Shown here: positions 11,349-63,787 of the stretch, piece after piece
How positions within the stretch are numbered: position 1 is the stretch's first letter
Layout of the letters: every line of letters starts with the position of its first letter
Source of the DNA: Clostridia bacterium
Lineage (GTDB): Bacteria; Bacillota; Clostridia; Oscillospirales; CAG-272
Assembly (NCBI GenBank): GCA_017504405.1
Contig: JAFVRG010000010.1
Coordinates: 1,883-65,882 of the forward strand
Direction of reading: 5' to 3'
DNA length: 64,000 nucleotides
Program-made: the position numbers and the translations under genes
Notes under the pieces: generated by a model
The model's database searches: none
The model's input: the letters and a program-made list of their open reading frames with translations, nothing else
Told to the model about the DNA's origin: nothing

Positions 11349-11360
11349 GGGCGTGCCCTC

Positions 11361-11546
11361 AACTATGATTGCCCTGTCGGACAAGCTATGAGGTACTACG
11401 TACCGTTATGATTGGCTTCGCCAAGTTATGAGTGACTTCGTCACGTTTAAGGTTAGACGGGCAATCATATCATAACGTTCGCAGAGCGAACTCATAACCT
11501 TTGCGTCAGCAAAATCATAACTTTCACGTAAGTGAAATCACAACTC
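11361..11546. repeat. Hairpin array A: unique 5-6 bp mini-hairpins spaced by (G/C)TATGA(T/G), then by the complement TCATAAC
   Basis: TATGA words at 11364, 11387, 11407 and 11427. Hairpins at 11392-11404, 11412-11424 and 11432-11444. TCATA(A/T) words at 11465, 11470, 11492 and 11515. Hairpins at 11477-11491, 11500-11513 and 11522-11537. An 11-bp long-range pair joins 11364-11374 to 11459-11469. Confidence 0.8.
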
Positions 11547-11551
11547 GTAAG

Positions 11552-11583
11552 AAAAAAGCTCCGATTACTCGGAGCTTTTTTTG
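11552..11583. terminator. Bidirectional rho-independent terminator
   Basis: AAAAAAGCTCCG attac TCGGAGCTTTTTTT. It serves convergent trmL (+) and the large-protein/peptide operon (-). Confidence 0.8.
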
Positions 11584-11598
11584 TTTTAGGTTATGGAA

Positions 11599-11753: not shown

Positions 11754-14700
11754 TTATTCCTCATCCTTGAGAGGATGGTTGATTGCCGCATTGTTTACGT
11801 ACTGCGGATATTCGGTCTTGTAGTAGGTGCATATATCAACGAGAGATACTGCTCCGCCGTTTGCCTGATAGTTCTGGCTGATACCGTCATCGTAGAGGTA
11901 GAGATACTCGCCGTCAAGCTCGATTATTACAAAACCACGGAAGAACATAAGCTGTTCCTTCGCAACAACCGTTCCGCCATTGGGAATACGGTTCGTATAG
12001 TCATCGCCGGTTACGTTGCCGTTGCGGTCGATAGAGCCGTTAATGAAATCAACGGTGTATGCAAATACTGTGGTCGTATCCTCACTGTCGGGAAGAACCG
12101 AGAGACGCTCTGCCTCCTCAAAGGACTTGAAGCCGTCATCCTCGTCAGCGATTATATCGGCAACGAAATTTTTACCGTCTGCGTCGATAGCAGTACCGTC
12201 GAAGGTAACGGTGAGGTTCTCAAAGCTGTCGTAGCCGACGAGTGCGCCGTATGCAACAACAGTTGCTTTTCTGAAGGACTCAGCCTTCGTCGTGTCGTAT
12301 GCATATACGCTTCTGATACCGACGTTCTTCGATACACGTGCCTGGAAGCCTATGAACGAGAATATCGAATCTGCGTTACCGAGCACGCCTGCAAGCTTTG
12401 CCTCAACAGCCTCCTTGCTGTCACAGCCGACAGAGCCTATCTGCGAGCCCTTGAACTCATTTACAATGAGCTTCTGCTGGGCTATGCCTGCGTTTCTGTA
12501 CGCCTCGGTGCTGACACCGTAGAAGCGGCAGATGTCAACGAAGTTGTTGATTGCAATTTCCTCGGCCGTAAGGTCGGTGATATAGATACGGAGGTAGGTG
12601 GGAGTCGTGCGGTAGTAGTAGAAGGCTGCGCCGTCCCAACCGCCGCCCTGACCAAGGTTTTCGATTTTAAGCGGCTCGTTATAGGTAGCGGAGCTTTCCC
12701 TCTCATCTACCAGAAGCTCTGCGTTAACGTAGCTGATAATATCGGTGGTGTAGGGATTTACATCGTCAACTATTGCGTCGAAGGTTCCGACGAAGTTGAT
12801 ACCGATGTAGGGGTAATCGGAAGACTTAAGGGTCTTATAGATTACATTCTGGCGGGTTCCGAATACACGGTTAGAACCCGAAAGTCCGATGTTAAGACCT
12901 ACGTTATTCATACTCACATTCATAAAGTTGCTGTATGTACCGGGAATGCTGCCGGGAGCATAGAAGATATACTGTGCGGTATATCCCGTTCCGTTTATGT
13001 TACAGGTATCGGCAGAGTTTGCGCTACCGAGTCCTGTGTTGGTTGCAGTGTTGCGGGTTGAACGCCACTGATAGCAGGGCTGACCTGCGCCCGGGTTAAC
13101 TGCATTCTTTATCTGCGCATCGGTCCAGCGGAATCCCGTATATACCATATAGTTATTGGATACTCCCGCCTTGAAGCTGACGCTGCCGTCCTCTGCATAT
13201 TCAAGGAACGGATGGATATAATCCTCGCTCTGACGCTGCTCATCGGTATATACGTTACCGTAGGTTGTGCCGTACAGCAGTGAGGGAGTGGGCGTGTAGG
13301 GAAGCAGGGTATCGGTTGCGGCCTCCGCAGTTGTCTTGTTAGAGGTATTAGAAGCCGTAAGCACGAACCAATTGCCCTTCGCCGTTCCGTCGGATATACG
13401 GACGTACGCATGGCGTCCGCCGTTATTCGTGAGCTCGAAATACTGATAGCTGCTCTGGCTTGCAAATGCGCCTATCTCAGGCTCAATGTAACGGATATTG
13501 TCGGGAACAGTCGTGGTCGAGCTGTTGTAATAACCAACGGTATTCTCGTTAATAGCGGTGAAGTCAACCTCGGCGTACAAATTCTCACGCTCAACGTAGA
13601 GCTCACGGTAGTTTACGATAAAATCAAGCTCTGAAACGAAGGCGTCAATCTTTTCCTTCATCGCAGTCTTGGTTGCATCGGTTGTGTCGTACATATTGTA
13701 CTCAGAGAAGCCGTTGTAGAAGGTGTCGTCGGCATACTCAAGAATCATTTCGATATCGTATGCGGATACGTCTACTGCGTACTTATAAATAAGGTCTGCA
13801 AAGTAGTTACGAGCCTTCTGCGCATCGGTAAGCTCAACGGAATACATACGGATATTGTCGATATATTTATCAACGGTTGCGATATATCCCGTATTTCTCG
13901 TGTGGTAGGAAAGACCCCTTGCCCTGTTGTTAACCGCAGGAAGGATAGAGGACTGATATGCAGCGCTTCCGTAATGCTTGGAGTAATCCACGTCTTTTTC
14001 GCCAAGTATATCGAATTTAAGCTCAAATTTCCTTACCACGGGGTCAAGAATTCTGCCCTCAAGAGTGAGGTTAAAGGTATGAGGCTCATCGAAGTAATAA
14101 TATTTGGACAGGGTAAGCATAGGGTTGGTGCTGTTAGAGTCCATACCGACGAAATTCGTGCATGCTCTGTTGTCCTTATAGTAAATTCTCGCATTGAACG
14201 TGGTAAAGCCCATCTGTGCCTGACCTGACAGGTCACCGAAGACACCGAGCGCAAAGTTAGCGTTGTAGTTGCTACCCGTTGCGGCAACGTTATTCTGCCA
14301 GAAATCGGAGTATTTATAGTTGGTCTGGAGCGTGAAATAACCGTAGCTGCCGTTTGCATCGGCTGTCGTCGAAAGGTTATCGTCAAGCCACAAGTCAATG
14401 TTACCCATAGTCTGGAGGTTGTTGAAATGTGCCTGAACTCCATCTCTGTCCTTAATCATATCGTAGGTGAAGAGGTTGCCCGTGTAAATACCTGCACCAA
14501 GCGATGTATTCGCCTGATTATCAGTCGTATAGGTTTTCAGATAACCGTCCTCGGTTATCGAAATTCCGCTGGTTGCGGTATCGGTATCGCCGCTCTTGTA
14601 GAAGCTGCCGACGAGGTTGTACTGACCGATATTCTGTCCGCCGAGGATTTTCAGAGCAGAGTGATACGTACCCATACCCGATGCAGAGTTAATGTCAGAG

Positions 14701-16139
14701 TTAACGGAGAGTATATCGTAGACGTCAACGTACTTTGCAAAGTGGCTGGGAACGAGGTCAACAACTGTCGTGCCGTCCTCGTCAAGAGTAACACGCTTCG
14801 TCGTGTAGTATGCCTGATCGAGGGTGGACGCATCTATGTAGGCAATGAGGTTGCCGTCGTCGTACCAGAGGTCCTCATAATAGCCGTAGTGACCCTTGCC
14901 GGGTGCGAAGTAGTAGTCAAGGATAGCCTTAAACTTATCCGCCTCGCCCGAGGTAGCAACGTCGGTGAAGTTGAGGTAGAAGTTCGCAACTCTGCGGGTG
15001 CCGTATGTCATTTGCTCGTTTATTGTGGTCATAACGTCCTTGAGCTCTACTTTAAGGCCTGTGAAGGACGGAGATTTAGCGCCTTCTCCGAACGAGTAGG
15101 GAGCCGTGAAGCCGGCGTACTGCGAGGACATACCTGCATAAAGCTGAGCTGCAAAGAGCGTAGCATCAACGCCTGCTGTTCCGTACTGGCAGAAAACCTC
15201 AGTCATCTTGTCAAGCATATCGTCGCCCGTGTAGCCTGCAAGGGTGAAGCCATTGTTGTACAGATACTCTGCAAACGCTCCCTTTACGTTCTTGCTGTCA
15301 AGGTCAGCGTCCTCGGTTGCGGGATCATCGTCTGCCTTATAGCCGTCAGGGAATCTGCCTGCAATAACGTCTCTTACTGCCTCTCTCTTTGCATCGTCAC
15401 CCTCAACGTCGAGCGATGAACCCGCCAGGATTACGAACAGGCTCGTGTCGGAGTCGTTAAGCAGTCCGAAGATGTAATCGGTAAGACCGTTTACAGACCA
15501 ATCGGCAACGTTTTCAGAGTTGAATTTTGCAGCGAGCTGGTTTCTCAGATTGTTGCTGTTTCCGTCAGCTGCAGTGTAACGTGCGCCTGCGGTGTAGAGG
15601 TCGCTGTAAACGTACGCCATCATAGCACCGAGCCTGTAATTTCCGATAATATATGTGTTGAGGAGCGTGCTGATAATATAGTTTGCTTCCAGAGGAGCAA
15701 GCATAATACGTACGTCACCGTCAACACCGTTAACGAAATAAAGCTCGTTATACAGCGCATCATAGTAGCTCATGAGGTCGCCCTCAACCGTGCCGTCACC
15801 GTTCGGGTCAATTACTGCCTTAATATCAGCAGTCAGTGCCTCGAGGGTGTCGTTGGGATAGCTGGGCTTGAGCGTCAGGGCAATTCTGCCCGCAACGTCA
15901 TCCGAGGTCATAGCCTTGTTTGACGAGAGATAATTCGTCAGCTTGGCATTTATGACGTCTGCCGTGGGAATGGTTGCCTCATCGCCGTATGCGTCGACGA
16001 GTGCGAGGAAGTGTGCCTTATTTGCATCATCGGGGAGTGCATCGTAGCCACCGTCCGCATATGACACAAGTGACATAGCAGGAATCATGCATACGAGCAT
16101 TACTGCGATCAGCACAAGGCTTAAAATTCGCTTTTTCAT
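11754..16139 (-). CDS. Large secreted protein (1461 aa) with at least two LamG/concanavalin-like jelly-roll domains
   Basis: N-terminal signal peptide MKKRILSLVLIAVMLVCMIPAMSLVSYA. Two domain-end motifs typical of LamG-type domains are present (IDNIRMYSVELTDAQKARNYF and YLRIYITDLTAEEIAINNF). No anchor motif was seen. Confidence 0.6.
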   Translation of the reverse strand: MKKRILSLVLIAVMLVCMIPAMSLVSYADGGYDALPDDANKAHFLALVDAYGDEATIPTADVINAKLTNYLSSNKAMTSDDVAGRIALTLKPSYPNDTLEALTADIKAVIDPNGDGTVEGDLMSYYDALYNELYFVNGVDGDVRIMLAPLEANYIISTLLNTYIIGNYRLGAMMAYVYSDLYTAGARYTAADGNSNNLRNQLAAKFNSENVADWSVNGLTDYIFGLLNDSDTSLFVILAGSSLDVEGDDAKREAVRDVIAGRFPDGYKADDDPATEDADLDSKNVKGAFAEYLYNNGFTLAGYTGDDMLDKMTEVFCQYGTAGVDATLFAAQLYAGMSSQYAGFTAPYSFGEGAKSPSFTGLKVELKDVMTTINEQMTYGTRRVANFYLNFTDVATSGEADKFKAILDYYFAPGKGHYGYYEDLWYDDGNLIAYIDASTLDQAYYTTKRVTLDEDGTTVVDLVPSHFAKYVDVYDILSVNSDINSASGMGTYHSALKILGGQNIGQYNLVGSFYKSGDTDTATSGISITEDGYLKTYTTDNQANTSLGAGIYTGNLFTYDMIKDRDGVQAHFNNLQTMGNIDLWLDDNLSTTADANGSYGYFTLQTNYKYSDFWQNNVAATGSNYNANFALGVFGDLSGQAQMGFTTFNARIYYKDNRACTNFVGMDSNSTNPMLTLSKYYYFDEPHTFNLTLEGRILDPVVRKFELKFDILGEKDVDYSKHYGSAAYQSSILPAVNNRARGLSYHTRNTGYIATVDKYIDNIRMYSVELTDAQKARNYFADLIYKYAVDVSAYDIEMILEYADDTFYNGFSEYNMYDTTDATKTAMKEKIDAFVSELDFIVNYRELYVERENLYAEVDFTAINENTVGYYNSSTTTVPDNIRYIEPEIGAFASQSSYQYFELTNNGGRHAYVRISDGTAKGNWFVLTASNTSNKTTAEAATDTLLPYTPTPSLLYGTTYGNVYTDEQRQSEDYIHPFLEYAEDGSVSFKAGVSNNYMVYTGFRWTDAQIKNAVNPGAGQPCYQWRSTRNTATNTGLGSANSADTCNINGTGYTAQYIFYAPGSIPGTYSNFMNVSMNNVGLNIGLSGSNRVFGTRQNVIYKTLKSSDYPYIGINFVGTFDAIVDDVNPYTTDIISYVNAELLVDERESSATYNEPLKIENLGQGGGWDGAAFYYYRTTPTYLRIYITDLTAEEIAINNFVDICRFYGVSTEAYRNAGIAQQKLIVNEFKGSQIGSVGCDSKEAVEAKLAGVLGNADSIFSFIGFQARVSKNVGIRSVYAYDTTKAESFRKATVVAYGALVGYDSFENLTVTFDGTAIDADGKNFVADIIADEDDGFKSFEEAERLSVLPDSEDTTTVFAYTVDFINGSIDRNGNVTGDDYTNRIPNGGTVVAKEQLMFFRGFVIIELDGEYLYLYDDGISQNYQANGGAVSLVDICTYYKTEYPQYVNNAAINHPLKDEE

Positions 16140-16200: not shown

Positions 16201-16248
16201 TTGATATATTAGACAAAATTTCGCACCTTTCGTTTGTGCAACATTAAC

Positions 16249-16272
16249 AAAAAAGTTCCGACTTAGCGTGTT
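16249..16272. repeat. Direct-repeat copy of the left arm of the 16374-16420 terminator
   Basis: AAAAAAGTTCCGACTTAGCGTGTT versus AAAAAACTCCGACTTAGCGTGTT at 16374-16396. They differ by one substitution and one 1-nt indel. The two copies bracket hairpin array B. Confidence 0.8.
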
Positions 16273-16285
16273 GTCTTTTCGGGAA

Positions 16286-16370
16286 TACGTAATGAAATCT
16301 GCCACGGGCAGATGAAATCCACCTATGGTGGATGAAGTCGCTATGCGACGAAATCCTGCTACGCAGGGTA
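16286..16370. repeat. Hairpin array B: four unique 5-bp hairpins spaced by ATGAAAT/ATGAAGT/GAAAT
   Basis: ATGAAAT at 16292 and 16312, ATGAAGT at 16332. Hairpins CTGCC acg GGCAG (16299-16311), CCACC tat GGTGG (16319-16331), GTCGC tat GCGAC (16337-16349) and CCTGC tac GCAGG (16355-16367). Confidence 0.8.
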
Positions 16371-16373
16371 AAG

Positions 16374-16420
16374 AAAAAACTCCGACTTAGCGTGTTACTC
16401 ACGCTAAGTCGGAGTTTTTT
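16374..16420. terminator. Bidirectional rho-independent terminator (15-bp stem)
   Basis: AAAAAA CTCCGACTTAGCGTG ttact CACGCTAAGTCGGAG TTTTTT, immediately after the stop of 16422..17453. Confidence 0.85.
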
Positions 16421-16421
16421 G

Positions 16422-17453
16422 TTATTTCGTATTCAAAACACGCCGTATCATCCACTGAGCATCGCCCATTGCATTCAAGACGTTTAATTTAATATTTGGG
16501 TTTTTACCCTGCCACACCACAAACAGCTCATGAACAAACGCTTGACCAAGCTCTTCAACGCCCGCGAAATCAAGGTCTGCCTCCTCAAAGCTGAGAAGGA
16601 GCTCGCCCAATCTGCGTGCCTCGGAGCGTGATACGGGATATCCGTTCTGGAAAAAGTGCGCTACCGGAATAGATGTTTTTATAAACCCCTCGTCTACGGT
16701 TGAAAATCTGTCGAACACCTCTCTTGAGGTTTTTTTACTGTAATTGTTGAGCGACATTATTACCAATGTTCCGTTGCTTTCCTCGGCTTCACGTCCGCCG
16801 TAATTCTCCCAATCATCCTTAAAATTATCTCTGACAAACACAGCACGGTCGGAAAAAATCATAAAACTATCCATAAGGTGAGATGTGAAGAATATCCCCT
16901 CGCCTGAATGAGCGCTTTTATTGGTAGTGAACTTTCCCGCAAGCAAAATTGAGGCACATTCCGCAAGAGGTGTATCCTCCCCCCTCTCGCTTAAAATGAA
17001 GTTTCTGATGTTTTTGAATATACCTATTCCGTTGTCAAATATGTGCACCTCGGTTTTGACCGCATCTCTTGTCACTCTCACCTCAATTATGTCGGATTTT
17101 GAATGTTCTATCGCATTATTCATCATTTCGCAGAAGGCATACTGCCATATACGGAAGACGTTTTTGGGCAAATCCGAAAGCATAGGCTCAATATCCGACG
17201 CAAATACTCTCGCCTCGTCCAATTTGCCGTTATTGGCGTATGAAAAATCCTTTTGGGTAAAAGCGAGGTAATACTCATTTTTATTCTCATGCTTATATAC
17301 CGTTCCCTCGTCGAGCAGCTCCTTCAAATAATTATAAACAGTAGACTTTGATTTGCCGAAATTCTCAACGGTTTTCGCCACCACTGCCGCATCATTAACA
17401 GAAATCAAGCCCAACATATACTGCTTTATCAATTCCTTGGTTGTATCTCTCAT
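16422..17453 (-). CDS. Fusion protein: N-terminal winged-HTH, GHKL (HATPase_c) ATPase/kinase-like core, C-terminal STAS-like (DUF4325-type) domain
   Basis: STVYNYLKELLDEGTV (wHTH). EMMNNAIEHS (N box), FDNGIGIF (G1) and SGEGIFF (G2). The C-terminal LDFAGVEELGQAFVHELF matches the STAS-like DUF4325 pattern as I recall it. Confidence 0.6.
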   Translation of the reverse strand: MRDTTKELIKQYMLGLISVNDAAVVAKTVENFGKSKSTVYNYLKELLDEGTVYKHENKNEYYLAFTQKDFSYANNGKLDEARVFASDIEPMLSDLPKNVFRIWQYAFCEMMNNAIEHSKSDIIEVRVTRDAVKTEVHIFDNGIGIFKNIRNFILSERGEDTPLAECASILLAGKFTTNKSAHSGEGIFFTSHLMDSFMIFSDRAVFVRDNFKDDWENYGGREAEESNGTLVIMSLNNYSKKTSREVFDRFSTVDEGFIKTSIPVAHFFQNGYPVSRSEARRLGELLLSFEEADLDFAGVEELGQAFVHELFVVWQGKNPNIKLNVLNAMGDAQWMIRRVLNTK

Positions 17454-20312: not shown

Positions 20313-21821
20313 ATGAGCGATAAGGACTTTGACATAGAAAACGAGAACGCCGAGGAAAGCAAGGCGGGTTCGGAAAACGAAAAAAGCACAGAAAACAACG
20401 TAGCGCCCGCACAAAAAACCGAGGACACAGGTAGCGGTAATTCCGAGAATACGCAGGAAAACGGGCAGGAGAGCCGTGAGGAAAATTCGGGTCTTTACGG
20501 AAACGATTTCTTCAATCCTAATCCAAATCAAAAAGGATACCAAAGCAACCCCTACAATTCGGGAAATCAAGGTAACCCATACAATTCGGGAAATCAGGGC
20601 AACCCATACAATTCGGGAAATTCCTATAACCCCTATAATCCCTATTCGGGCAACTCCTATAACCCGTACAGACAGCCAAAGCCCAAAAAGCCCAAGAATC
20701 CGTACACGCTGTTAACGGTATTCGTGGTAGTGGGGCTGATACTCTCGCTCGGTATGGGAATTGTAGGAATGGTGATAGGCTCTGCCATAACCTCATCGGA
20801 TTATGAGGATAAGCTCGCCAAGGTCAACCAAGTAATCAACATACAAACCAACACAGTTGAGAAGAACCCCACCGAGGCAGGCACGTCCTCATGGGTATTT
20901 GAGGAATGCCGTGACAGCGTTGTAGCAATAACCACGAACCTCGGAACAGGCTCAGGCGTGTTCGTCAGCGTACAGCATCAGAATGCCCCCGAGCCCTATG
21001 CGTATATCATTACTGCAAACCACGTTGTCAGCGGTGCTACCTCGATAAAGGTGCAAACCTATGACGGACGTGAATACGTTGCAGAGTCTATGGGCGGTGA
21101 CGCCTGGACGGATATTGCGCTCATAAGGATAGTTGTAGACCAAAGTTCGGTATATAAGCCAAAGGCACTCGCAACAGGTACGGACTACGTCAATATGGGC
21201 GAGGAAATAGTCGTTATCGGCAATCCCTTGGGCGAGCTGACGTGGAGCGTTTCGACGGGAGTTGTCAGCGGTCTTAACCGAGAGGTGTACCTTGACGGCT
21301 ACAAAATGAACCTTATGCAGATAGATGCGGCAATCAACCCCGGCAACTCGGGCGGCGCCGTATTCGATATGCACGGAAATTTAGTTGCTATAGTCAATGC
21401 AAAGACCGTGACAACGGGTGTTGAGGGTATCGGCTATGCTATTCCCGCTCCCGATGCGCTGAACGTTATAAATCAGCTGCTCACAAACGGCGGCTACGTT
21501 TCGGGCAGACCCTACCTCGGCATCGGATTTTCGGGTGTAAACAACGTAAACGTGGCAGGTGCGTACCAGTTCTCGGGATATATGATTACGAGCTATGCAT
21601 TCGGTGACCAGCTCAAATACGGCGATTTGCTGGTTTCAATTGACGGTACGGCTCTCGTTGACGCCTCGCAGATAATACAAACGCTCTCGCAGAAGAATAT
21701 CGGTGATAGCATAACCTTCACGGTTATAAGGCTCAACACGCAGACAAACACCTATCCGTTTGCAACGCTTGACGTTACGGTTACTATTCACAGCATCGAC
21801 GATTATCACAATCTCGGCTGA
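20313..21821 (+). CDS. Membrane-anchored trypsin-like serine protease (HtrA/DegP-like, S1C) with a low-complexity N-terminus and a C-terminal PDZ-like region
   Basis: NPYNSGNQG repeats, a TM segment LLTVFVVVGLILSLGMGIVGMVIG, histidine block ITANHVV, and serine block GNSGGAVFD. Confidence 0.8.
   Translation: MSDKDFDIENENAEESKAGSENEKSTENNVAPAQKTEDTGSGNSENTQENGQESREENSGLYGNDFFNPNPNQKGYQSNPYNSGNQGNPYNSGNQGNPYNSGNSYNPYNPYSGNSYNPYRQPKPKKPKNPYTLLTVFVVVGLILSLGMGIVGMVIGSAITSSDYEDKLAKVNQVINIQTNTVEKNPTEAGTSSWVFEECRDSVVAITTNLGTGSGVFVSVQHQNAPEPYAYIITANHVVSGATSIKVQTYDGREYVAESMGGDAWTDIALIRIVVDQSSVYKPKALATGTDYVNMGEEIVVIGNPLGELTWSVSTGVVSGLNREVYLDGYKMNLMQIDAAINPGNSGGAVFDMHGNLVAIVNAKTVTTGVEGIGYAIPAPDALNVINQLLTNGGYVSGRPYLGIGFSGVNNVNVAGAYQFSGYMITSYAFGDQLKYGDLLVSIDGTALVDASQIIQTLSQKNIGDSITFTVIRLNTQTNTYPFATLDVTVTIHSIDDYHNLG
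20547..20668 (+). repeat. In-frame 27-bp tandem repeats (NPYNSGNQG units) inside the protease gene
   Basis: AACCC(C/A)TACAATTCGGGAAATCA(A/G)GG(T/C) repeated at 20547, 20574 and 20601, followed by degenerate NPY units. Confidence 0.8.
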
Positions 21822-34221: not shown

Positions 34222-34430
34222 CAGAAAGGGCGCTTTTTGAAAAAAGCTTCGCAAAAACTTTCGCAGAGAAAAGACGAAAATAGGGCGCTTTTTGAAAAAA
34301 GCTTCGCAAAAACTTTCGCAGAGAAAAGACGAAAATAGGGCGCTTTTTGAAAAAAGCTTCGCATAAACTTTTGCAAAAAAATACGGAAACAGGCCGCTTT
34401 TTGAAAAAAGCTTCGCAAAAACTTCATAAT
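34222..34430 (+). repeat. Four tandem copies (period 55/55/54 bp) of the CGCTTTTTGAAAAAAGCTTCGCAAAAACTTT element
   Basis: Cores begin at 34231, 34286, 34341 and 34395. Copies 1 and 2 are identical over 55 bp. The array lies between the clpB stop (34218) and the terminator. Confidence 0.9.
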
Positions 34431-55075: not shown

Positions 55076-56479
55076 TTATATCCTCTTTTCATTTTTGATT
55101 TTTCCGTATAATACGTATGCGCTTGCGCGCTCTATCTCGACGTCGAGGTATTTACCCACGTCATTTTCAGTTGCAGAAAAATGCACCAGCTTATTTTGCG
55201 CCGTTCTGCCCGAATAAATACCCATCTCGGAGCTCTCACCGTCAACGAGCACCCTAACGGTTGTGCCGACAGCCCGCTGATTTTTCTCAATAGCGATTTC
55301 GTCTTGGAGAGCGAGCAGACGGCGCATGCGCTCTCCCTTAACGCTCTCGGAGAGCTGCTCCCGCTCTGCGGCAGGCGTGCCCTTGCGTGGCGAGTAGATA
55401 AATGAATAAATCATATCAAACCGCACAAGGCGCATTATGTCGAGCGTTTTCTCAAAGTCCTCCTCACTCTCCCCGGGGTAGCCCACGATTATATCGGTGG
55501 TTATCGCTATGTCGGGGATTTTTTCACGGAGCTTTTTCACTATCGTGAGATACCTCTCGGTACCGTATTTTCTGTTCATGTCACGAAGTATTCTGTCAGA
55601 GCCGCTCTGCAATGGCAGGTGGAAATGCGGCTCTACCCTGCCGTGTGAGGTTGCAATAACGTCAATGAGCGCATCGGGCGTGTCCTTCGGGTGGCTGGTC
55701 ATAAATCTGATTATATAGTCGCCCTCCCTCTCGGTTATACGGGAGAGCAGGGTTGCAAAATCGCAGTCGCTTTTGTAGGAATTTACATTCTGACCGAGCA
55801 GGGTTATATCCTTACACCCCGTGTCGATGAGCGCATTTACCTCTGCGATTATATCCTCGCTTTTTCTGCTCCGCTCACGCCCACGAACGTAGGGGACAAT
55901 GCAGTAGGAGCAAAAATTATTGCAGCCGTACATTATACTCACGTATGCCCTGTGCGATACGTCACGCATCACGGGTATACCCTCGCACACCTCGCCTGTG
56001 TCGGTGTCCCACATAAAGCTGCGCTTGTATTTTTTATCGGAAATTTTCTGCCATACGAGCCTGGGTATCATATAAACCGAGTTCGGCTCGACTGTGAAAT
56101 CGACGTTGTGATAGCGCATTTTGAGCTGCTCTGCACGCTCCCTTTGCGCCACCATACAACCGCATATTCCTATGACGGTGTCGGGGTTTTCCGCCTTCCT
56201 GTGCTTAAGCTCGCCAATCATCGAGAGCGCACGGTTCTCTGCGTGCTCACGCACGGCGCAGGTGTTTACGATAATGAGGTCTGCCTCATCTGCGCTCTGC
56301 GCCCGTCCGTAGCCCATAGAGGCGCACAGCCCACGTATCCTCTCACTGTCCGCCTCGTTCTGCTGACAGCCGAAGGTGTAAACGTAGGCGAGCATTTCCT
56401 TGCCCCCCTCACGCCTTTTTTCGTTGTGCTTGAGCAAAAGCCCTATGTATTTTTCGTATTCGCTGTTTTTTATATCCAT
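55076..56479 (-). CDS. miaB: tRNA (N6-isopentenyl adenosine(37)-C2)-methylthiotransferase
   Basis: YTFGCQQNEADSE (UPF0004), radical SAM GCNNFCSYCIVP, and a C-terminal TRAM domain. Confidence 0.9.
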   Translation of the reverse strand: MDIKNSEYEKYIGLLLKHNEKRREGGKEMLAYVYTFGCQQNEADSERIRGLCASMGYGRAQSADEADLIIVNTCAVREHAENRALSMIGELKHRKAENPDTVIGICGCMVAQRERAEQLKMRYHNVDFTVEPNSVYMIPRLVWQKISDKKYKRSFMWDTDTGEVCEGIPVMRDVSHRAYVSIMYGCNNFCSYCIVPYVRGRERSRKSEDIIAEVNALIDTGCKDITLLGQNVNSYKSDCDFATLLSRITEREGDYIIRFMTSHPKDTPDALIDVIATSHGRVEPHFHLPLQSGSDRILRDMNRKYGTERYLTIVKKLREKIPDIAITTDIIVGYPGESEEDFEKTLDIMRLVRFDMIYSFIYSPRKGTPAAEREQLSESVKGERMRRLLALQDEIAIEKNQRAVGTTVRVLVDGESSEMGIYSGRTAQNKLVHFSATENDVGKYLDVEIERASAYVLYGKIKNEKRI

Positions 56480-56581
56480 AAAAGCCTCGTTGCTTTACCT
56501 GTATTTTTTGCCTGTTAAGTCAACCCTTCGCTTCCGTAACCGCCATCAAGGCGGAGGTGCTAAAATCGCTTGCCAATTGGG

Positions 56582-57565
56582 TTAAATTTTCTCATAGACG
56601 GTGTTGACCGTCAGAACCTCGCCGTTTTTAAGGAATATCACCGCACCCACCTCTGCGTTGTCAGAAAGGTATGCAAGCGCCTTGTCCTTGCCCATAACAA
56701 AGAGGGCTGTTGACAGCGCATCGGCGAGCGCTCCGTCATCGGACACAACCGCAACCGACAAAATATCGCTGTCGGCGCACCTGCCTGTTTTTACGTCAAA
56801 AATGTGATGATAGAGGACTCCGTCCACCGTTTTATTCCTCTCATAAACGCCCGACACCGAAACGAATCCGCCGTCAAGCGTCAGCTTGCCGTGTACCGCC
56901 GTAGGCTTTTCGGGGTTTTTGACACCCACCGAAAACGGCTCGTCACGCTCGCCAAAGACCGATATATTACCGCCGAGCGACAAAATGCCCCAGCCGTAGC
57001 CCTTTTCTGCTAAAAGCTCGGTAAGCCTCTCGGCTATATAGCCCTTAGCCACGCCGCCGAGGTCTATTTTCATACCGACAGGGCGTGTGATTTTCCCGTC
57101 AGCGAGGGTTACTCTTTCGTAGCCCACAAGGTCGAGCGCATTTTCTATCTCACTCTCGGTAGGCAGAGGGGCATCGGGGTCGTTTATCTTCCACACCTCG
57201 GTCAGAGCGCCGCAGGTGTAGTCGTACGCTCCGTTTGTTTCAGCGGCGAGGGCATGCGCCCCTAAAAGCACCGCAAACAGCTCGTCGCTGACCGCAACCG
57301 TTTCTTCGGTTGAATGATTTAATTTATACAGCTCCGAGCCCTCACGGGTTGCGGAGAAAATATCCTCGTAGTAATGTAGCCCGCTCATTACAAGCGGAGT
57401 GGCGTCACCGTCCTCGCCGTCGGAGAGGGCGGGCAGGGTAATCTCTACCAGCGTATCGAGCGCATACACCGACACCTTATGCGTTTGCTCCGAGCAGGAG
57501 GAAAGCGACAGCGCCGAGGTCAGCATAAGCAAAACCGCAAGGGTAAGCGAAAAAAATTTTTTCAT
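56582..57565 (-). CDS. apbE: FAD:protein FMN transferase (ApbE family) lipoprotein
   Basis: Lipobox LSLSSC. DLGGVAKGY and HHIFD motifs. Confidence 0.85.
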   Translation of the reverse strand: MKKFFSLTLAVLLMLTSALSLSSCSEQTHKVSVYALDTLVEITLPALSDGEDGDATPLVMSGLHYYEDIFSATREGSELYKLNHSTEETVAVSDELFAVLLGAHALAAETNGAYDYTCGALTEVWKINDPDAPLPTESEIENALDLVGYERVTLADGKITRPVGMKIDLGGVAKGYIAERLTELLAEKGYGWGILSLGGNISVFGERDEPFSVGVKNPEKPTAVHGKLTLDGGFVSVSGVYERNKTVDGVLYHHIFDVKTGRCADSDILSVAVVSDDGALADALSTALFVMGKDKALAYLSDNAEVGAVIFLKNGEVLTVNTVYEKI

Positions 57566-58365
57566 CGTTTGCCTCCGTAATGCTTTTTGAGCCTGTCCTC
57601 AACCAAAAGAAGTAAAACGCCGCTGAATGCGCCAAGGGGCACCGAGGTTATAAGTAGAACGGGAAGATAATAGATAATTCCAAACGAGGAGTACATCATC
57701 ATAGCCGCAAAAATCTGTCCTATTCCGTGCATAGCGCAGGACATAACCCCAACGCCTATTCGGCTGATTTTTTCGCCGAAAAGCAATGATAAAAACAAGG
57801 CTGAAAGCGACAGAGCCGTTCCAAAGAGCGAGAAAAGGAATGTGGACGCATTGCCAAACAGGACTGCGGACAAAACAGCACGCAAGAGCGCAACGGCTAC
57901 CGCATATTTTTTTCCGATGATGAAGAATGCAAACATTACCGCTATATTGGCAAGCCCTAATTTTACTCCGGGGAAAACCGCAGGGAAAATGAGCATCTCA
58001 ACGTAGGAGAAAATCAGCGCAATAGCCAACAGGCACGCCGTCAGCGACAGGGCGGCGGTTTTCGGGTGGCGTCTTGCTTGCTTTGCCGTGAATTGCGCCG
58101 AGCCGTTTTGTGTTCCCCCGTTGCCTTCAACAGCTTTTTTGCAGTCGCCGCCGCTGACAGAATTTGCTTCAACGCCGCATGTGGCGGTATTTGCTTCTCC
58201 GTTCAGCTCATTGCCCACAGCGGACCTTGCGGGGGTGGCGCTCTCACTTGCAACGGGCTTTGCTTTGCCGCTTCCGTTCGCAACGGTTTTTACATCAGCC
58301 CCCTGTGTGTTTTCGGGGGAAATTTTCCTTGCGCCGTCCTCACTTTGCAAACTATAGAGCAGCAT
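57562..58365 (-). CDS. Gx transporter family protein (heptaprenyl diphosphate synthase component I-like) with a low-complexity N-terminal extension
   Basis: The C-terminal ~170 aa are hydrophobic and carry PGVKLGLANIAVMF. The start is uncertain: the longest ORF (58413) overlaps the upstream gene by 62 nt, and the ATG at 58365 reduces the overlap to 14 nt. Confidence 0.55.
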   Translation of the reverse strand: MLLYSLQSEDGARKISPENTQGADVKTVANGSGKAKPVASESATPARSAVGNELNGEANTATCGVEANSVSGGDCKKAVEGNGGTQNGSAQFTAKQARRHPKTAALSLTACLLAIALIFSYVEMLIFPAVFPGVKLGLANIAVMFAFFIIGKKYAVAVALLRAVLSAVLFGNASTFLFSLFGTALSLSALFLSLLFGEKISRIGVGVMSCAMHGIGQIFAAMMMYSSFGIIYYLPVLLITSVPLGAFSGVLLLLVEDRLKKHYGGKR

Positions 58366-58726
58366 CAAAATCACCCCCAAAGGATATTTTGACCGTAACC
58401 GCCGCAGGGGCACAAACGATTATCTCGCCCTCACGGGATATTTTCCCGCTGTTCACGCACACACCGTCGGGGCAGGTGGACTGTTCTATCCACACCTCGC
58501 CGTTCTCAACGCACAAAACAAGGGACACACCGCCGTTTTCTATCTCAATTCGGCGGGTTTCGTAGAGGGAAATATATTCGGTCTTATCCCCGACAGTCAA
58601 TTCCGCTACATTGCCCTCGTCCGAAAAAACGAACGGGGATAGCCATATTGCAAGCGCAAGAAAAAGGACAATCGCCACTATGGCAAAATCAAGCAGCTTT
58701 GTATGAGAAAACAGCCCCTTTTCCAT
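58352..58726 (-). CDS. NusG domain II-containing membrane-anchored protein
   Basis: N-terminal TM segment, then VWIEQSTCPDGVCVNSGKISREGEIIVCAP, typical of the NusG_II family that accompanies Gx transporter and ApbE genes. Confidence 0.7.
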   Translation of the reverse strand: MEKGLFSHTKLLDFAIVAIVLFLALAIWLSPFVFSDEGNVAELTVGDKTEYISLYETRRIEIENGGVSLVLCVENGEVWIEQSTCPDGVCVNSGKISREGEIIVCAPAAVTVKISFGGDFDAAL

Positions 58727-63104: not shown

Positions 63105-63455
63105 TTAATTTTCGGCATTACCCTTGACCGTAGTAATAGAAGAAATAAGGATTCTTCTTATTCTACCTGCTATATTGGCAAGCTTTGAAAAGGTAGCTTC
63201 GCTTATAATATCAGTTTTCACAAAAAGATTGAGCCAATATTCCGTTTCGTGGCACTCCTTAAGAGCTATTTGTAATTTTGCGGCAAAATCCGCCTTACTC
63301 TGCGCATAGTTTGCCTCATGCACATTTGCACCGATGCTTGTACCGTTTCTCAGAAGCTGATTTTTCAGCACAAATTTTCCTTTCAAGCTCTCGCAGAGCT
63401 TCACAATCTCCACAGAGAATTCCATTGATAAATCTAACAGTATGTTATCTGACAT
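63105..63455 (-). CDS. Four-helix-bundle protein (23S rRNA intervening-sequence protein / Avd-like family)
   Basis: Start at 63455 (MSDNILLDLSMEFSVEIVKLCESL). QLLRNGTSIGANVHEANYAQSKADFAAKLQIALKECHETEYWL is the family signature as I recall it. Confidence 0.75.
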   Translation of the reverse strand: MSDNILLDLSMEFSVEIVKLCESLKGKFVLKNQLLRNGTSIGANVHEANYAQSKADFAAKLQIALKECHETEYWLNLFVKTDIISEATFSKLANIAGRIRRILISSITTVKGNAEN

Positions 63456-63464
63456 ATTGCCTCT

Positions 63465-63699
63465 GATGAAATGCGGCGGCGCCGCATGAAATGATGCGTT
63501 GCATCTTGAAATGTAGCAGACTACGCCGCTACATGAAATGCACAAGCGTGCATAGAATGAAATTTGCCCTTACTAAAATATGCGCCGCAAAAGCGGCGCA
63601 TTTCATGATATTTTATATCATTTCATTCACTTTAAGTGAATTTCATTTGCACAGCCTGCTGGGCAAATTTCATTGGAAGCGAATCAACGATTCGCTTCC
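63465..63699. repeat. Hairpin array D: five (A/T)TGAAAT-spaced and four ATTTCAT-spaced unique hairpins around a 9-bp central hairpin
   Basis: ATGAAAT at 63466, 63486, 63533 and 63557, and TTGAAAT at 63506. ATTTCAT at 63600, 63620, 63640 and 63667. Hairpins at 63473-85, 63493-505, 63513-32, 63540-51, 63580-601, 63607-19, 63627-39 and 63675-99. A 14-bp long-range pair joins 63556-69 to 63661-74. Confidence 0.85.
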
Positions 63700-63787
63700 T
63701 CTATGGCAACCGCAACCGCAACAGTCATACCAACCATGGGGTTGTTACCTGTTGCTACGGCTTTCATTTATCGTCGTTTGGTATCAT

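Follow-up and report, generated by a model that had tools for sequence, protein, structure and literature searches.

The DNA analysed here is a stretch of 64,000 nucleotides (the window) from the metagenome-assembled genome (MAG) of an uncultured Clostridia bacterium. It is ordinary chromosome, encoding SecA, TrmL, DapA, QueA, ClpB, LigA, MutS/L, Tgt and Dxs, and the database names of its proteins read "MAG: Clostridia bacterium". Our subject is array B, a row of short hairpins in a 282-bp gap between two minus-strand genes, together with the pair of near-identical sequences that flank it. The gene on the left (11754-16139) encodes a protein of 1461 amino acids (aa) that is predicted to be secreted and in which the domain scan found no Pfam domain. 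The gene on the right (16422-17453) encodes a 343-aa HATPase/DUF4325 protein. Its stop codon lies at 16422, with the terminal hairpin of the array directly beyond it.

Repeat search and direct reading located the flanking copies on the plus strand, X1 (AAAAAAGTTCCGACTTAGCGTGTT) at 16249-16272 and X2 (AAAAAACTCCGACTTAGCGTGTT) at 16374-16396. Both read AAAAAA(GT/C)TCCGACTTAGCGTGTT, with an exact 16-mer and a run of six A residues in common, and the repeat search gave 86% identity over 28 nt. A complementary arm follows the right copy only: X', at 16400-16420, pairs with X2. A first-pass annotation, made from the letters of the sequence, had described this duplicated terminator arm, and the repeat search confirmed its coordinates. 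According to the fold and a terminator scan, the X2 left arm (16374-16394), a loop (16395-16399) and the X' right arm (16400-16420) form a terminal hairpin with a perfect stem of 20-21 bp, 9 G-C pairs and a 5-nt loop, preceded by A6 and followed by T6. This is the anatomy of an intrinsic terminator on both strands, and the hairpin therefore doubles as a bidirectional terminator between the two minus-strand genes.

The interval between X1 and X2 starts with a 19-nt spacer (16273-16291) that has no repeat elsewhere in the window. It continues on the plus strand with four word-hairpin units with a period of 20 nt, loops of 3 nt and stems of 5-7 bp. The words are ATGAAAT (16292-16298), ATGAAAT (16312-16318), the degenerate ATGAAGT (16332-16338) and GAAAT (16350-16354), as had been claimed. 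Folding gave hairpin 1 as AT-CTGCC-acg-GGCAG-AT (16297-16313), hairpin 2 as AT-CCACC-tat-GGTGG-AT (16317-16333), hairpin 3 as GTCGC-tat-GCGAC (16337-16349, 5 bp) and hairpin 4 as CCTGC-tac-GCAGG (16355-16367). The four stems are indeed unique within the array. The length of 5 bp originally given for all of them needs correction for hairpins 1 and 2, where flanking AT pairs extend the CTGCC-ACG-GGCAG and CCACC-TAT-GGTGG cores to 7 bp. Because the AT...AT of the words is drawn into these two hairpins, the single-stranded linker consists of GAA only.

The repeats and the fold of array B are beyond chance. Only three places in the window have a direct repeat of 14 nt or more within 250 nt, against 0.08 expected from shuffles, and the fold of array B has a z-score of -10.4. 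ATGAAAT is found 27 times in the window, against 12.5 expected, with clusters in array B and in a second array, D. These two arrays lie 47 kb apart and, as first noted, have the word in common and no hairpin sequence. The stem of hairpin 4 also closes arrays at unrelated MAG loci (L016 and L096; loci from our survey are cited by such numbers).

With a score close to the threshold, array B belongs to Gut-1 RNA (Rfam RF01706), a known orphan motif that the first-pass annotation had not recognised. An Rfam scan of the window at the gathering threshold returned no Gut-1 match. An E-value-mode rescan, carried out after scans of related loci, matched three hairpins with GAA linkers on the plus strand (16290-16359). 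The covariance model aligned over its full length (1-77) with 46.8 bits and E = 4.5e-6, the gathering score being 50 bits. The score of array B falls just under this cut-off because its third hairpin is short and the word of that hairpin degenerate. Relatives with the same grammar, at five scanned loci, reach 50.7-76 bits, above the cut-off, and the Rfam consensus itself displays this grammar, with AU...GU or AU closing pairs and GAA joins.

The original description of Gut-1 rests on 43 copies, all from metagenomes of the human gut, and names neither an organism nor a context or function; the published model has three hairpins only (Weinberg et al., 2010, PMC2864571). Array B shares with it the tandem row of at least three short hairpins (here four) with variable stems and conserved pairing, the GAA linkers, the stems closed by AU...(A/G)U, the word (A/G)UGAAAU and the full-length alignment to the model. 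It also shares the association with uncultured bacteria of the gut, here Clostridia, and related arrays were found in Oscillospirales MAGs from gut, rumen and faeces. A closing arm, a fused terminator, paired forward and reverse halves and neighbouring four-helix-bundle genes go beyond the published description.

A scan of one genome per GTDB species for the pattern ATGAAAT-N13-ATGAAAT-N13-ATGAA yielded at least 119 loci. Among the matches listed, about 60 can form at least four of five stem pairs with a 3-nt loop in both gaps, and nearly all of these arrays belong to Oscillospiraceae, Acutalibacteraceae, Ruminococcus or unclassified Clostridia MAGs. In a set of 22 orthologous arrays, pairing held in 97.9% of cells and 7 pairs had changed on both sides, values that none of 500 shuffles reached. 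Judging from this pattern of substitution, the hairpins of Gut-1-type arrays are real structures. Paralogous arrays in one Fimenecus MAG (L042 and L055) also have stems that differ by compensatory changes.

The modules follow a common grammar. Their short hairpins vary in stem sequence while pairing is kept, and are closed by A-U and U-A (or U.G) pairs; with the 3-nt GAA linkers this produces the word (A/G)UGAAAU. A terminal hairpin completes the module, and one of its arms is repeated at the module's far end. At L062 and L093 unit 3 is missing, apparently lost via recombination between words.

Because an arm of the terminal hairpin is repeated at the far end, a long-range X1:X' stem can enclose the units, in competition with the local X2:X' hairpin. 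In array B a 21-bp X1:X' helix is possible around the four units, with 14 Watson-Crick pairs, U.G and G.U, and then A-U pairing. (A 7-nt inverted match across this helix, GAATACG/CGTATTC, was taken as chance.) The only differences between X1 and X2, GT versus C, give U.G and G.U pairs with X' on the plus strand and C.A and A.C mismatches on the minus strand, and the calculated energy of the X1:X' duplex is -29.1 kcal/mol on the plus strand versus -26.9 kcal/mol on the minus strand. The plus-strand sense indicated by the wobble pairs of array B agrees with the strand of the Rfam match.

A check for other arrays with duplicated flanking arms found the layout again in array D, which has the same plan of arm, units and arm-loop-complement, in about 25 related arrays linked to tRNA genes, and, in mirror arrangement, in one sequence of the Weinberg Gut-1 seed. 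In the reverse half of the tRNA-linked arrays, X1 is followed by three hairpins and by X2-loop-X'. Arm X of this subfamily takes at least five unrelated forms (TTGCCC, AAATCCC, TCGTTCC, TCGCC and CCACCC, plus TCATTCC), and X1, X2 and X' change together in nearly every case. Their X1:X' duplexes, of 10-15 bp and -13 to -22 kcal/mol, are longer than the local duplex. The arrays at L094, L065 and L144 are likewise bracketed by an arm or a whole hairpin; the bracket at L065 and L144 is a complete palindromic hairpin on each side, similar to a terminator.

A search for flanking direct repeats around 78 arrays was uninformative because the terminator was counted as the last unit, and was replaced by arm-copy and duplex-energy tests. 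Pairing of -12 kcal/mol or better between the last hairpin's 3' arm and the upstream flank was seen for 10 of the 82 arrays tested and for 26 of 643 permuted pairs, an enrichment with p = 0.016. Array B, at -26 kcal/mol, is the strongest of the 82. The first-pass annotation had offered two readings of the duplicated arm, one of which made the upstream copy an alternative partner for the single right arm. Recurrence of the layout, covariation and the wobble-compatible differences support this reading, with the qualification that the long-range stem is not the ground state. The duplicated arm is best read as a closing arm that is typical of the family and fused to the terminator.

The arrays of the tRNA-linked subfamily are located mostly between a terminator-plus-tRNA gene and a variable left neighbour. 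Their forward half (L012, L019, L025, L028 and others) is highly conserved, with ATTGC-tac-GCAAT, AATCC-tty-GGATT and ATTTTGCC...GGCAAAAT. It has a TGCTATAAT-type conserved box upstream; the terminator and the tRNA gene then follow, and the tRNA differs among genomes.

The other reading was an insertion footprint: an array unit of about 101 bp (16273-16373) would have landed within the left arm of a terminator that was already present, with duplication of about 23 bp, and Gut-1 arrays would be mobile, either like miniature inverted-repeat transposable elements or as templated insertions. An exact 16-nt repeat and an A6 run do flank array B, and the family is dispersed, with three arrays within 64 kb. 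Near-identical arrays lie on two contigs of one MAG, SIG656 (L013, 16-92; L074, 3610-3686), the L074 array being flanked by a 14-bp direct repeat, TACCTCATCCACCG, with one further inverted copy nearby. Whole palindromic hairpins are duplicated around the arrays of L065 and L144, a four-helix-bundle gene at L096 is flanked by inverted copies of one array in the manner of terminal inverted repeats, and the reverse halves of the tRNA-linked family differ as whole cassettes next to conserved forward halves. The paralogous arrays of L042 and L055 and the units missing at L062 and L093 are further signs of this kind. Since the family is both dispersed and multi-copy, mobility of Gut-1 arrays is plausible at the level of the family.

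At the array B locus itself the insertion found no direct support. Bracket lengths are 7-10 nt in the tRNA-linked family, 14 nt at L074, 23-24 nt in array B and 24 nt at L065. They do not correspond to a target-site duplication of fixed length, and a range of 7-24 nt is at odds with the action of one transposase. In orthologous arrays the joint change of X1, X2 and X' argues for selection on pairing, and in array B the differences between X1 and X2 are compatible with wobble pairing. An exact look-up of the 343-aa protein found three other contigs of the species, all 100% identical across the gap and none with an empty site. The next homologues of the 343-aa gene, about 60-62% identical, lie in other gene neighbourhoods without synteny, where no arrays were detected, and a metagenome scan with the terminator core gave 0 matches. 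No HUH nuclease, transposase of the RAYT type (associated with repetitive extragenic palindromes), other transposase or integrase was identified among 41 scanned window proteins, a set that covers most of the larger genes but not ClpB and three open reading frames (ORFs) of 283-467 aa at 55076-58413. On balance we regard an insertion as an unlikely origin of the duplicated arm.

Array D (63466-63680) consists of five forward ATGAAAT units and four reverse ATTTCAT units, as defined by repeat search and fold. A closing stem, ATTTGCCC...GGGCAAAT, surrounds its reverse half, and Gut-1 matches were obtained on the minus strand (63595-63675, 48.6 bits) and the plus strand (63423-63517, 33.4 bits). 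Starting 10 nt from array D, a minus-strand gene (63105-63455) encodes a four-helix-bundle protein, assigned by the domain scan to PF05635/TIGR02436 (Avd/S23p-like). For a 27-aa ORF at 63684-63767 (minus strand), the match to a GGGtGRT protein (PF14057) is confined to the C-terminal end of that protein, and a stop codon immediately precedes the ORF. At L095 a full-length GGGtGRT gene occupies the same position, before an array and a four-helix-bundle gene. The ORF in the window looks like a remnant that travelled with the array.

PF05635 genes adjoin Gut-1-type word arrays not only in the window but also at L012, L028, L033, L064, L096 and L127-L167, and the arrays often form an inverted pair around the gene. 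Among the matches listed, the gene lies within about 50 nt of the array at 16 of 55 array-bearing genome loci and in the same fetched stretch at 22 of 55. We also examined an array-unbiased sample, 41 metagenome loci retrieved by the four-helix-bundle protein alone. A strict Gut-1-like array was present at most 300 nt from the gene in 15 of the 41, and none occurred elsewhere in the flanks. A 6-mer repeated at least four times was found in 47 of 74 flanks (250 nt) of four-helix-bundle genes versus 6 of 176 control windows, and the upstream word was often the reverse complement of the downstream word.

The words differ among lineages of the four-helix-bundle protein (ATGAAAT, GTTATAT, CGATATA, GTGATAT, ATGAATT and AACGAGATT; L137, L144, L132, L154, L147), and the closest relatives of the window protein, at 63-73% identity, carry ATGAAAT. 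Some loci, including L152, L157 and L160, have plain heptad repeats without hairpins, with GTGAAT, TTCTCTA-like and GGTAAAAAGTAAGA words. In a Bacteroidota MAG (L057, 4900-5740), ATGAAAT/GTGAAAT-hairpin units come after a four-helix-bundle gene and lead into a long reverse array; the link between word and gene therefore reaches beyond Clostridia. Inverted copies of one array enclose the gene at four loci (L096, L132, L144 and L154). The inverted four-hairpin arrays of L096 (843-1594) flank an apparently frameshifted four-helix-bundle gene, with an RNase H gene and a 984-aa gene as neighbours.

Avd of diversity-generating retroelements is a four-helix bundle that binds nucleic acid and a structured RNA-protein complex. 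The protein encoded next to array D belongs to the same four-helix-bundle family, PF05635 (named in PMC10053308). Among the genes scanned there was no reverse transcriptase and no template/variable repeat pair, and the gene in the window is an orphan, unlike the Avd genes of the retroelements. Our literature search found no publication that ties the PF05635 family to such arrays and gave only work on intervening sequences (IVSs). S23p-encoding IVSs of 23S rRNA, for example in Coxiella burnetii, are cut out by RNase III; they carry a PF05635 ORF between stem-forming terminal inverted repeats, with tandem heptameric direct repeats adjacent to it (PMC4990558). The layout of a gene between inverted arrays is alike in array D with its gene and in L096, L132, L144 and L154. 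The elements described here differ in that they are intergenic rather than located in rRNA, and in that their arms are word and hairpin arrays instead of a plain 28-bp stem. Array B has no ORF between X1 and X', and array D shows adjacency only.

These comparisons allow a broader proposal, in which Gut-1 arrays would be the cis partner of orphan PF05635 proteins and each lineage would have its own 7-nt word. Candidate words would be ATGAAAT in the window and GTTATAT, GTGATAT, ATGAATT, AACGAGATT or GTGAAT elsewhere. A gene and its inverted arrays would then make up an element of the IVS type, selfish or regulatory, that occurs across phyla. Solo arrays, array B among them, would be derivatives without a gene that are bound in trans, here by the protein encoded 47 kb away, and the duplicated arm would be a by-product of copying or closing the module. 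We hold this proposal only tentatively and consider it possible rather than probable.

Alternatively, the words might act in double-stranded DNA. ATGAAAT words, placed every 20 bp and on one face of the helix, could be sites for a DNA-binding protein, possibly the four-helix bundle, upstream of the promoter of the 1461-aa gene, and the palindromes would be incidental. A promoter scan placed this promoter on the minus strand, with a -35 box TTGAAT at 16200-16195 and TATAAT at 16177-16172, and array B occupies roughly positions -95 to -200 with respect to the gene's predicted start. The 20-bp period, the symmetry that results from forward and reverse halves, the hairpin-free heptad words beside four-helix-bundle genes at L152, L157 and L160, and the location of arrays next to promoters, as with the conserved TGCTATAAT beside tRNA-linked arrays, would suit such an element. 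A spacer in duplex DNA, however, needs no compensatory changes of the kind that keep these hairpins paired across species and paralogues. The conserved U.G closing pair and the consistent tie of the arrays to terminators and closing stems also speak against such an element, and we consider action at the DNA level to be quite improbable.

The third array of the window, array A (11349-11585), is of the same construction but has another word: according to repeat search and fold, its first half consists of four forward (G)TTATGA units and its second half of four TCATAA units in reverse. Its closing stem, TATGATTGCCC...GGGCAATCATA (TTGCCC/GGGCAA), is followed by a bidirectional terminator at 11551-11585. 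Neither the gathering-threshold scan nor the E-value-mode scan gave an Rfam match for array A. Arrays A and B stand at either end of the domain-less 1461-aa gene.

All three arrays of the window, and most others, have an intrinsic terminator as neighbour, with no fixed side or orientation, and arrays are found between convergent or tandem genes. A passive stack of hairpins without a specific partner, which stabilises 3' ends or insulates transcription units, might be distributed in this way. The model for such a stack would be the repetitive extragenic palindromes (REPs) and bacterial interspersed mosaic elements (BIMEs), which are multi-copy intergenic hairpins of Enterobacteria and Pseudomonas, often beside terminators and clustered in alternating orientation. 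The palindrome of REPs is conserved in sequence, and RAYT recognises its 5' GTAG motif (GT[AG]G). The arrays described here resemble REPs and BIMEs in copy number, intergenic location, frequent proximity to terminators and clusters of alternating orientation. They differ in that stems are unique within and between arrays and the linker alone is conserved. Strong conservation of the GAA linkers and AU closing pairs across phyla, as far as the Bacteroidota array of L057, argues for specific recognition. On the minus strand, moreover, array B is situated beyond the terminator and ahead of the next promoter, and would seldom be part of either mRNA. We therefore rate a purely passive role as very improbable.

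Other known systems were also compared. REP/RAYT elements, retrons and integron attC sites are ruled out by their anatomy. Clustered regularly interspaced short palindromic repeats and type III toxin-antitoxin systems (ToxI-like) need long identical repeats (at least about 23 nt, or 36 nt) together with cas or toxin genes. The word of array B has 7 nt, its units are non-identical, and its neighbours encode the HATPase/DUF4325 and 1461-aa proteins.

Our preferred interpretation, to which we assign a probability of roughly 60%, is that array B is a solo Gut-1 module, in which the duplication is a selected structural feature of the family rather than a one-off insertion scar and the row of GAA linkers is a platform for an Avd-like protein. 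Transcription of the module on the plus strand would begin near 16205, at a weak extended -10 box, and would yield an RNA of about 200 nt with its 3' end at the terminator. The candidate box, TGATATATT (16202-16210), comes from direct reading and stands back to back with the -35 box of the 1461-aa gene promoter. In such an RNA, X2:X' would form first and stop transcription. The hairpin row would display GAA(AU) linkers every 20 nt as a multivalent protein platform, for which the best candidate partner would be the Avd-like four-helix bundle encoded beside array D, the array with the same ATGAAAT word. If X2 were displaced or bound, X1 could pair with X' and the U tail, closing the 5' and 3' ends. 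Plus-strand transcription, the platform role and the switch between X2:X' and X1:X' are what we infer from this anatomy.

Several points weigh against this interpretation. The Rfam score of array B is under the curated cut-off. The plus-strand promoter is a consensus-level guess, and we treat it as no more than a candidate, since matches of this quality are frequent in AT-rich DNA. Strand assignment was tried from counts of G.U versus A.C, and the signals conflict across the family: mismatches in the inner stems favour the UUC-sense strand (11 versus 3), and the conserved U.G closing pair favours the GAA-sense strand. Strong closing arms, at -12 kcal/mol or better, are found in a minority of arrays (the 10 of 82 given above). 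The fold with the terminator has -82.3 kcal/mol versus -71.1 kcal/mol for the long-range fold, a difference of about 11 kcal/mol in favour of the terminator. Since the local hairpin is more stable, the long-range stem would be an alternative state. No four-helix-bundle gene lies next to array B, and the agreement between words and protein similarity could be due to co-descent alone.

Two further repeats in the window are of a different kind. Just downstream of clpB, at 34227-34420, there are about 3.5 tandem copies of a 55-bp unit, AGGGCGCTTTTTGAAAAAAGCTTCGCAAAAACTTTCGCAGAGAAAAGACGAAAAT, unrelated to Gut-1. A 27-bp tandem repeat at 20553-20620 lies within the gene of a trypsin/PDZ (HtrA-like) protease.

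Since its description in 2010, the Gut-1 RNA motif has remained an orphan, unassigned to any organism, gene context or function, and four-helix-bundle proteins of PF05635 outside diversity-generating retroelements are equally unexplained. For annotation, it matters that arrays such as those described here score just under the Rfam cut-off and may be mistaken for new repeats or insertion scars. The present analysis assigns Gut-1 to named Oscillospirales MAGs and shows its published three-hairpin model to be no more than the core of larger modules, in which forward and reverse halves combine with a closing arm and a fused terminator. These modules adjoin four-helix-bundle genes, which makes a pairing between protein and word array a testable proposition for both orphan families.

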